Source of the DNA: Wickerhamiella versatilis | Taxonomy: Eukaryota | Direction: 5' to 3' | Assembly: GCA_030867685.1 (NCBI GenBank) | Contig: JAQOWU010000008.1 | Coordinates: forward strand, 434,001 to 498,000 | DNA: 64,000 nucleotides | Shown here: positions 46,433-47,988 of the stretch, in pieces | Position numbering within the stretch: position 1 is the stretch's first letter | Layout of the letters: every line of letters begins with the position of its first letter | Program-made: the position numbers and the translations under genes | Notes under the pieces: generated by a model | What the model was told of the DNA's origin: nothing | Database searches by the model: none | What the model saw: only the letters and a program-made list of their open reading frames with translations

Positions 46433-46963
46433 ATGAACGCCGTGTATTCGCGACTCGCGAACCTTCAAATGTCTGGCGGAATTAGCCTCGACAACATTCG
46501 TAACGAAACCAGCAATTTGCGTAGTCGTTTCAGTAATCTTCGTGGCCCACGGGACTTCTTCGATTTCAAGCGCGTGTCTCGTCCCTTAGGCTGGGGCGAT
46601 GCGCAATCCAGGGTGACCTTTAACCTAAGATATTTTTCCAGTGATTATTCTGTGATAATTTTATCGCTCGTGGTATACGCTTTGCTCACAAACTTGCTCC
46701 TATTGTTTGTTCTAATATTAGCGGTGGGAGGATTTTTGGGTATTTCTGCACTTGGGGGAGCCGATCTGGTCTTGCCAGGAGGCCTTGTGATCACTTCTCA
46801 GTCGCTTTATATCGCTTTGGGAGTGGTCACCGTTCCGCTTTTCATTATCGCGTCACCGATGGCTACAATGTTTTGGCTCATAGGAGCAGCCGCTGTGACA
46901 ATCCTTGGCCACGCAGCTCTATTGGAAAAACCACTTGAGAGTGAGTTTGCTGAACAGGTTTAG
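46433..46963 (+). CDS. YIP3: PRA1-family protein Yip3
   Basis: FFDFKRVSRP, SRVTFNLRYFSSDY, LGHAALLEKPLESEF. Confidence 0.92.
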   Translation: MNAVYSRLANLQMSGGISLDNIRNETSNLRSRFSNLRGPRDFFDFKRVSRPLGWGDAQSRVTFNLRYFSSDYSVIILSLVVYALLTNLLLLFVLILAVGGFLGISALGGADLVLPGGLVITSQSLYIALGVVTVPLFIIASPMATMFWLIGAAAVTILGHAALLEKPLESEFAEQV

Positions 46964-47011
46964 TTCTATAGATACTTTCTTCGTTATATAATATGTCTTA
47001 GGCTGCGTTAG

Positions 47012-47099
47012 CTTGATCAGAACCACGCCTTGTCAGGGGCGATTTTCAGCAAATGATGCCTCAGTTGACCGTCGTGAGTTGTGGGAGCATCATCTCAAG
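47012..47099 (-). ncRNA. SNR73: Box C/D snoRNA, snR73/U35 homolog (25S Cm2959)
   Basis: Box C ATGATGC, guide CTCACGACGGTC complementary to LSU GACCGUCGUGAG, D' CTGA (D+5 lands on the first C), box D CTGA, stem CTTGA/TCAAG. Confidence 0.9.
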
Positions 47100-47109
47100 T
47101 AAAACTTAC

Positions 47110-47183
47110 CTTCAGGTTATAAATATATCCCCACACATAAAGTCGGTTGTATGCTTGCAAAATTAAATGAAATCATCATTAGC
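47110..47183 (-). ncRNA. SNR74: Box C/D snoRNA, snR74 homolog (18S Am28), apparently exonic
   Basis: Box C ATGATGA, guide GCAAGCATA complementary to SSU UAUGCUUGU, D' CCGA (the D+5 rule lands on A28), box D CTGA. Confidence 0.75.
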
Positions 47184-47257
47184 CTCCGAGGTAGAAGTCA
47201 GTTGCAGGCAGTGCCCACCACCTAAAACCTCATCTATCCCGCTGTCATGTTAGTGCT

Positions 47258-47344
47258 GCCCTCAGTAGCGTAGGTTTTCTAGGCCCACTAAAAGCTTTTC
47301 ACTCAGCGAATTTCAGTGCCCAGTGCTGTAAATCCTCATTGGGT
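47258..47344 (-). ncRNA. SNR76: Box C/D snoRNA, snR76 homolog (25S Cm2197)
   Basis: Box C ATGAGGA, guide AGCACTGGGCA directly before D' CTGA (LSU UGCCCAGUGCU), box D CTGA, CCC/GGG stem. Confidence 0.88.
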
Positions 47345-47374
47345 ACATACCCATTTGTCTATTCTTTCTTGTTA

Positions 47375-47467
47375 GCACATCAGTCCATGTGTTGCAGCAA
47401 CCAATTTTTCTCAGCACGAGTTGTGCTCTGATAATTCCAGCTTATAGGTTTGAAGCATCATCTGTAC
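47375..47467 (-). ncRNA. SNR77: Box C/D snoRNA, snR77 homolog (18S helix-18 loop, Um578 region)
   Basis: Box C ATGATGC, guide AGCTGGAATTATC complementary to SSU GGUAAUUCCAGCU, box D CTGA, terminal stem GTACA/TGTGC. Confidence 0.85.
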
Positions 47468-47486
47468 ATACCCTTTCGGTTAGTCT

Positions 47487-47566
47487 GTCCTCAGTTTGTG
47501 CATTATGATCATAAAAACATTTCACAAACTCTAGTTTGTATTTTTAATGGTTGATCTTCACCGGAC
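47487..47566 (-). ncRNA. SNR78: Box C/D snoRNA, snR78 homolog (25S Um2421, S. cerevisiae numbering)
   Basis: Box C GTGAAGA, guide CAAACTAGAGT complementary to LSU ACUCUAGUUUG, D' GTGA, box D CTGA, terminal stem GTCC/GGAC. Confidence 0.85.
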
Positions 47567-47673
47567 TTACTCTTATCCTCCTCTCCTATTCAGGGGGTGG
47601 ATAGTAATGCAAAAACTGGAAAAACAGTCAGCAGTGACTTGGTTAAAATATGTATACTTGATTATGTAAGGAT

Positions 47674-47988
47674 CTATTTACCGAGCGTGACGCCCACATT
47701 CTCCAAGAATACCACGTTGGAGGCACCATTAGCGACCTTATCGATAATAGCTTTATTGAATGCCTTGCCATGTTCAGTGCCCATGTGTGCCTTAAATCCC
47801 TCTTCACCATAGTAGGTCTCTTCCACATGGAAAGTATCAGGATCATCCTTTAGAGAATAAACCTCGAATCGTAGATTGCCTGGCTCTGCTCTAACGCTCT
47901 CAGCTAAGTCGCAAAGAGCATCGGCAACAAACTGGCGCTGACCAGGCAGCGCAGTCATCGTAGCATAAAGAGTTTTGATTTCCGGCAT
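47674..47988 (-). CDS. ABM (antibiotic biosynthesis monooxygenase) family, putative quinol monooxygenase-like; bacterial-looking
   Basis: 104 aa; VRAEPGNLRFEVY...DPDTFHVEETY...FKAHMGTEH matches the dimeric alpha-beta barrel ABM signature. Confidence 0.85.
   Translation of the reverse strand: MPEIKTLYATMTALPGQRQFVADALCDLAESVRAEPGNLRFEVYSLKDDPDTFHVEETYYGEEGFKAHMGTEHGKAFNKAIIDKVANGASNVVFLENVGVTLGK

Follow-up and report, generated by a model that had tools for sequence, protein, structure and literature searches.

A tetraloop-capped hairpin as candidate RNase III entry site in front of an exonic snR74 in the cluster I snoRNA host gene of Wickerhamiella versatilis

The snoRNA locus of Wickerhamiella versatilis contig JAQOWU010000008.1 analysed here is a mixed-type host gene for the cluster I snoRNAs of a budding yeast, in which snR74 sits in an internal exon with snoRNA introns on both sides. 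Between the preceding acceptor and snR74 this exon carries an imperfect hairpin with a GGGC tetraloop, and the best single explanation for it, to which we assign a probability of about 0.45, is that it acts as the entry site of an Rnt1-type RNase III that releases snR74. We worked on a stretch of 64 kb of this contig, in the following called the window, and all cluster coordinates are positions on its minus strand (Table 1). The anatomy proposed in an earlier sequence-only reading of this DNA (an exonic snR74, no snR75 in the window and an NGNN-capped hairpin) was confirmed, and the cleavage proposed there is still a matter of prediction.

Table 1. Positions of the host gene parts, the snoRNAs and the leader hairpin in the window.
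Feature	Position	Strand	Details	Basis
Host exon 1	47571..47617	-		3' end 47571 firm (junctions); 5' end at ~47617 tentative (loose read ends behind 47617: 73 reads in X23, 40 in X24)
Intron 1	47473..47570	-	98 nt; GTAAGT...GACTAAC...AAG	Junction 47471->47570, cut read +1
snR78, in intron 1	47565-47489	-		Rfam RF01176, 51.8 bits
Exon of 1 nt	47472	-	G	Junctions 47363->47472 and 47471->47570 (cut +1)
Intron 2	47364..47471	-	108 nt; GTATGT...TGCTAAC...AAG	Junction 47363->47472: 92 (X20) and 90 (X21) reads
snR77, in intron 2	47468-47378	-		Rfam RF01181, weak, 19.5 bits
Exon 3	47351..47363	-	13 nt	12 letters "between" in multi-exon junctions
Intron 3	47242..47350	-	109 nt; GTATGT...CACTAAC...CAG	Junction 47241->47351
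snR76, in intron 3	47344-47258	-		Rfam RF01209, 77 bits
Exon 4	47110..47241	-	132 nt; hairpin, 1 nt, snR74	Junctions at both ends
Leader hairpin	47187..47241	-	Imperfect, 21 bp, 55 nt	ViennaRNA fold
Tetraloop	47213..47216	-	GGGC, NGNN class (G at position 2)	
Predicted cuts	47196..47231	-	Between 47231 and 47230 and between 47197 and 47196	Inferred from the -14/+16 ruler only
snR74	47108..47184	-	SNORD27-like box C/D	Rfam RF00086, 20.9 bits against a gathering score of 52
snR74 boxes		-	C 47179-47173; guide 47158-47150; D' CCGA 47146-47143; D CUGA 47115-47112	
Intron 4	47003..47109	-	107 nt; GTAAGT...AGCTAAC...CAG	Junction of 47002 and 47110
snR73, in intron 4	47105-47015	-		Rfam RF01207, 39.2 bits
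Last exon, first three bases	47000..47002	-	CCU	Joined to exon 4 by reads

Rfam models and RNA-seq junctions together define a host gene in which snR78, snR77, snR76 and snR73 are intronic, one per intron of 98-109 nt. The order of the Rfam matches on one strand, snR78, snR77, snR76, snR74, snR73, is that of cluster I, which is conserved in fungi as snR78-77-76-75-74-73-72 (PMC3596301). The scores of snR78, snR76 and snR73 exceed the Rfam gathering score and snR77 and snR74 appear only at relaxed thresholds; the weak snR77 match is backed by a guide block that the window has in common with the snR77 of L004, one of the metagenome loci introduced below. Four RNA-seq runs were available, two random-primed and paired (X20, X21) and two polyA (X23, X24), from libraries not of the end-mapping type, and junctions were listed from 3 reads or 2 in 100 upwards. 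Taken together, the runs confirm every splice junction of the host gene, and the four used introns have GTAAGT or GTATGT donors and branch sites of the CTAAC type. Multi-exon reads join exon 1, the 1-nt exon, exon 3 and exon 4, and the join of exon 4 to the last exon is also seen in reads; one transcript thus carries intronic as well as non-intronic snoRNAs, as in a polycistronic cluster of mixed type.

Two of the junctions deserve a closer description. For the snR76 intron, the single junction 47241->47351 is covered by 11 (X20), 3 (X21), 0 (X23) and 2 (X24) reads, to which multi-exon junctions from 47242 add 4, 4, 34 and 16 reads in the same order. The snR73-intron junction was aligned as 47004->47126 with 15 letters between (6, 15, 21 and 9 reads in the four runs) and corresponds to a join of 47002 and 47110, because a T insertion in the strain used for RNA-seq shifts the alignment; loose read ends at 47110 were counted in 27, 16 and 8 reads. 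The 1-nt exon G47472 is supported by the consensus of reads with loose ends, which runs in the order exon 3, single base, exon 1. Around this base, reads were seen with the snR78 intron out alone, with the snR77 intron out alone and with both out.

The neighbouring transcripts lie close to both ends of the host gene. Upstream, a gene on the minus strand (ORF 47988-47674) receives polyA tails at 47637, 47631 and 47628; the host RNA tentatively starts only ~10 nt further on, at ~47617, and could partly be fed by read-through from this gene. On the other side, read ends of the polyA runs are numerous at 46994, 47003 and 47013. These are likely the 3' ends of a plus-strand gene (46433-46963), and its RNA would then run across the acceptor and the last exon of the snoRNA host gene, to which it is convergent.

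Reads show that snR74 is exonic: the junctions between 47241 and 47351 and between 47110 and 47002 were seen, and none of the junctions listed in the four runs has an end inside 47241-47110. Both borders of the exon lie where the sequence-only reading had placed them. Upstream, the CAG acceptor of the snR76 intron ends at 47242 and reads join 47241 to 47351; downstream, only AG (47111-47110) separates box D (CUGA, 47115-47112) from the donor GTAAGT (47109-47104), as described from sequence before, and this donor is in use in reads that join 47110 to 47002. A good 5' splice site had been said to be missing between the snR76 acceptor and snR74, and the only GT hexamers of exon 4 upstream of box C are indeed GTTTTA, GTGGTG and GTGGGC, with no GTAWGT hexamer anywhere in this exon (47110-47241).

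As also anticipated, snR75 is not found between snR76 and snR74. Neither snR75 (RF01185) nor the snR72 type (RF00343) was matched, either around the cluster (46700-47900, E ≤ 10) or over all 64 kb of the window (E ≤ 5), and two snR75 guide motifs derived from the metagenome loci L004 and L029 have 0 matches in the window; a loss of snR75 can accordingly be stated for the 64-kb window. In the available text of two comparative studies, the absence of snR75 from the cluster is described for some Basidiomycota and for no budding yeast (PMC5033589, PMC3596301). For comparison we used a metagenome scan with two conserved snR76 blocks, which yielded 54 loci. A blastn search with 46900-47720 matched four of them, all weakly, and there is no close relative with the arrangement of the window among the 54. 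Neighbouring cluster guides occur only in L004, L039 and L029, which are of yeast origin, intron-less and distant. Four of the 54 loci (L004, L029, L011, L001) were scanned with Rfam, and L004 and L029 turned out to be intron-less yeast clusters with all seven snoRNAs, snR75 and snR72 included. We also considered the hairpin as a relic of snR75 and rejected this idea: the 8-mer common to the leader and to the snR75 guide of L004 and L029 is not significant, its score being equalled in 115 and 117 of 2000 shuffles and exceeded, by chance, by that of snR76.

The 61-mer 47245-47185 folds in ViennaRNA as a single hairpin of -20.9 kcal/mol, with 8 contiguous bp under the loop, followed by four short helices that are separated by bulges of 1-2 nt. 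The stem AGGUGGU/ACUGCCU with its GGGC loop, described from sequence before, is present (loop at 47216-47213), and its imperfect extension, estimated then at ~13 bp or more, brings it to 21 bp in all. The stem base is 47241, the first nucleotide of exon 4 directly after the CAG acceptor, and the hairpin takes up 55 of the 57 leader bases between this acceptor and snR74. Since the stem (47241-47187) is followed by one base and then by snR74, exon 4 consists of hairpin and snoRNA without spare sequence. The hairpin is also rarer than expected by chance, with figures that are indicative because the criteria were set post hoc: 14 of 3000 dinucleotide shuffles of the 61 nt produce a single NGNN-capped hairpin of the same stability, 11 of the 10,952 NGNN candidates that the 64-kb window has on its two strands are as stable in a constrained fold, and with at least 5 loop-proximal bp and at least 16 bp the leader hairpin ranks third of 26 in the window.

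The strain used for RNA-seq differs from the window at no fewer than 19 positions in 901 bases. These differences are unevenly spread, with 0 fixed ones in the 443 nt of 47141-47583 and 13 in the 457 flanking bases, and the cluster core including the leader hairpin is more conserved between the two strains than its surroundings; as the strains are identical over 47141-47583, the comparison is uninformative on covariation of the hairpin stem.

Concerning the function of the hairpin, Rnt1 is known to read stems capped by NGNN tetraloops and to cut them 14 and 16 nt from the loop (PMC1868780, PMC4334505), a ruler that we apply as -14/+16 (PMC13183374). The GGGC loop has its G at position 2, at least 5 bp lie under the loop and the duplex extends to -14/+16, with 47230 and 47197 inside the stem. 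Cuts had been guessed near 47200 and 47230 before, and on the predicted structure the ruler puts them close by, at the positions given in Table 1. A non-intronic box C/D snoRNA has to lose its capped leader, which in S. cerevisiae is taken off co-transcriptionally by Rnt1 (PMC5934358); the cistrons of the snR78-72 cluster are likewise separated by Rnt1 cleavage (PMC5033589). By analogy, an Rnt1-type RNase III would enter at the leader hairpin and cut ~14 nt 5' and 16 nt 3' of the loop, which would remove the capped upstream part and leave a 5'-monophosphate ~12 nt before snR74. A 5'->3' exonuclease would then trim back to the snoRNP, and the 3' end of snR74 would be made by 3'->5' trimming after splicing of the downstream intron. 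We infer the cleavage, the enzyme and the trimming steps alike, and as to the enzyme, budding yeasts differ in their RNase III set, with a different RNase III performing the tasks of Rnt1 in the Candida clade (PMC3579876).

The intron-less clusters allow a comparison of the hairpin with those of the S. cerevisiae-type snR78-72 polycistron. The same hairpin scanner, run on L004 and L029 as positive control, puts spacer tetraloop hairpins on top of each list, and both loci have such a hairpin in the spacer just upstream of snR74. The window is similar to this type of polycistron in the cluster and its order, in the tetraloop hairpin just upstream of snR74, in the G at loop position 2 and in a stem long enough for the -14/+16 ruler. 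It differs in that its other four snoRNAs are intronic and spliced in reads, that its hairpin adjoins a 3' splice site, that its stem is richer in GC (-19.7 versus -8 to -13 kcal/mol in the controls) and in the first loop base: all 8 spacer hairpins of L004 and L029 have AGNN loops, none of the 8 a G at position 1. This G in place of A or U also departs from the S. cerevisiae pattern, where loop position 1 of in vivo Rnt1 sites is A, occasionally U, and where A/UGNN loops are predicted by folding for 42 of 63 sites in ORFs, with a strong preference for A (PMC13183374). Within the controls themselves, AGNN hairpins occur in at least four spacers of each locus, and the loop sequences of the snR77/76 and snR73/72 spacers are conserved between L004 and L029.

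In the random-primed runs, the depth over the hairpin bin 47191-47221 is the highest of the locus (165/156 in X20, 157/173 in X21) and falls to ~25-40 across the snR73 intron and to ~20-37 across the last exon. In the polyA runs, the junction 47242->47570 is covered by 26 (X23) and 11 (X24) fully spliced reads that continue into the hairpin. Because of this depth and of these spliced reads entering the hairpin, uncut hairpin RNA has to be considered abundant, and the uncut RNA of leader and snR74 often retains the snR76 intron. Such an abundance is not what would be expected from efficient co-transcriptional cutting; a slow cut is compatible with the steady-state depth. A pile of read ends in 47187-47241 is absent from the rows listed for these libraries, which are not of the end-mapping type. 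Over 47129-47376, that is the snR76 intron, the hairpin and snR74, the random-primed depth is ~110-180 per direction and lower on both sides. It seems that a partly processed RNA accumulates that retains the snR76 intron and ends near snR74 on its 3' side.

Among the long species, none is as abundant as the uncut RNA with the hairpin, and this favours another view, according to which the hairpin is a leftover or chance structure and snR74 is freed by decapping or by another endonuclease, together with exonuclease trimming to the snoRNP. The atypical G at loop position 1 fits to this view, as does the plain fold z-score of only -2.0 (9 of 200 shuffles fold as well), and the ability of the exonic snoU14 of S. 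pombe to do without Pac1 indicates that other routes exist (PMC12508059). The predicted folding context points in the same direction: the pair probabilities of the hairpin are 0.61-0.94 in the unspliced RNA of 718 nt and drop to 0.09-0.16 in the spliced RNA of 296 nt, and in a context of 151 nt the hairpin is absent from the minimum-energy fold. In the fold of the spliced RNA, the 5' arm of the hairpin pairs over a long distance with the box D/junction region; we set this pairing aside because box D would be occupied. A chance origin is at odds, however, with the 14 of 3000 local shuffles that give an equally stable NGNN-capped hairpin and with the exact filling of 55 of 57 leader bases between acceptor and snoRNA, and a leftover of snR75 would be at odds with the lack of significant similarity to it (115 and 117 of 2000 shuffles as good). 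Overall, we regard this second view as rather unlikely.

The position of the hairpin is also the starting point for a third explanation, in which it acts on splicing or on the order of processing, either by gating the snR76 acceptor or by holding the leader off snR74 during snoRNP assembly. The stem starts at 47241 straight after the CAG acceptor, is predicted mainly in unspliced RNA, and lies next to the intron with the fewest spliced reads (11 single-intron reads in X20 versus 92 for the snR77 intron) in a region of high unspliced depth across the acceptor; the relative timing of cleavage and splicing is moreover of importance in S. pombe (PMC12508059). Nevertheless, steady-state read counts are no measure of rates and the same data are compatible with a slow RNase III step, and we consider a role in splicing or processing order distinctly improbable as the explanation of the hairpin.

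A further possibility concerns snR74 itself, which we take to target A28 of 18S rRNA. The copy might be an exonised pseudogene without a snoRNA product, given an Rfam score of 20.9 against a gathering score of 52, a D' box that reads CCGA and not CUGA, and two changes in the snoRNA 3' half of the RNA-seq strain, a substitution at 47140 and a 1-nt insertion after 47125. Against this stand canonical boxes C and D, a guide block and a guide-to-D' distance that match the snR74 of L004, which Rfam annotates with confidence, the location of the strain differences outside boxes and guide, and a terminal stem of 5 bp in the spliced RNA, which together make a pseudogene very improbable. In the guide/D' region, partial differences (47147 T>G, 47151 A>T, 47153 G>T) were noticed in the polyA runs only and in one read direction only (e.g. 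14/24 at 47147 in X23); they are absent from the random-primed runs and may stem from mis-laid reads. Finally, a cryptic intron around snR74 with donor GTGGTG, branch TATAAC and an AAG acceptor abutting GTAAGT, removed by recursive splicing, is hardly credible and was rejected as main route: AAG and GTAAGT at 47112-47104 do look like a recursive splice point, a TATAAC precedes this AAG by 5 nt and the 1-nt exon of the same gene demonstrates a spliceosome tolerant of extreme exons, yet the check for reads that place snR74 in such an intron found no junction end within 47241-47110 among those listed in four of four runs, spliced reads carry the 3' part of snR74 joined to the last exon, and the candidate donors, none of them donor-like, are unlike the GTAAGT and GTATGT in use.

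Besides the 5' side, the 3' side of snR74 also has a peculiar structure. The four intronic snoRNAs have terminal stems of 3-5 bp in place, directly flanking boxes C and D; in its genomic context, the terminal stem of snR74 has 2 bp and a G-U pair. In the spliced RNA, AG (47111-47110) together with CCU (47002-47000) pairs with AGGCU (47185-47181) in 5 Watson-Crick bp; the chance of three matching bases at the junction is ~1 in 64, for a feature noticed after the fact. This suggests that snR74 matures from RNA from which the snR73 intron has already been removed, and its 3' terminus may include the point where the two exons are joined. One step further, mature snR74 would itself be a spliced RNA. 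With a terminal stem that spans the junction of exon 4 and the last exon, its snoRNP would become stable only once the snR73 intron is spliced, and an unconditional RNase III hairpin at the first nucleotide of the exon would compete with splicing of the snR76 intron. We hold this combination to be unlikely. If true, it would represent an internal exonic snoRNA with a cleavage-dependent 5' end and a splicing-dependent 3' end, processed in an order set by two junction-adjacent structures.

Among the closest described systems to an RNase III entry site in front of snR74 is the mixed cluster of S. pombe, where snR107 is intronic, snoU14 lies in the next exon and Pac1 cuts a hairpin upstream of the exonic snoRNA (PMC12508059). 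Both loci have a non-coding host, an intronic snoRNA with an exonic one in the exon on its 3' side, a hairpin of at least 20 bp between acceptor and snoRNA, and the same question on the order of splicing and cleavage. In contrast, the parts of the S. pombe hairpin come from two exons and can pair only once these are spliced, whereas the window hairpin lies wholly in exon 4 and is predicted to form best before splicing; in the window it is only the terminal stem of snR74, and not the RNase III stem-loop, that spans an exon-exon junction, namely the downstream one. The exonic snoRNA of S. pombe is furthermore the last of its cluster, whereas in the window the intronic snR73 comes after snR74, and cleavage is demonstrated there and predicted here.

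Several traits of the locus are already known from elsewhere, namely mixed clusters, 1-nt exons, loss of snR72, loss of introns, RNase III hairpins between cistrons and the S. pombe mechanism. Cluster I of the Candida clade and of other fungi has exonic and intronic members and single-base exons (PMC5033589, PMC3596301), the latter in the snoRNA clusters of Candida (PMC5033589); snR72 is missing from the cluster or relocated in several species, and snoRNA introns were lost in evolution (PMC5033589, PMC3596301). The available text of these two papers has neither a leader hairpin nor an RNase III test at the exonic member. In the literature covered, which for the comparative papers means the text apart from figures and supplements, we found no description of an internal exonic member between snoRNA introns, of an NGNN-capped leader hairpin that is wholly exonic and abuts an acceptor, or of a snoRNA terminal stem completed by a downstream splice.

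The way in which non-intronic snoRNAs are released from mixed precursors is understood at one locus of S. pombe (PMC12508059), and for budding yeasts other than Saccharomyces it is only assumed (PMC5033589). Without cleavage at the hairpin, the locus would be no more than an ordinary mixed cluster. With a cut hairpin, it would offer a compact test case for RNase III cleavage versus splicing at an adjacent acceptor and for the strictness of the first loop base outside S. cerevisiae. The locus would be a natural intermediate between an all-intronic and an all-RNase III cluster, with one de-intronised member and introns on both sides of it, and if the hairpin is cut, such a cluster can switch its mode of processing one snoRNA at a time.
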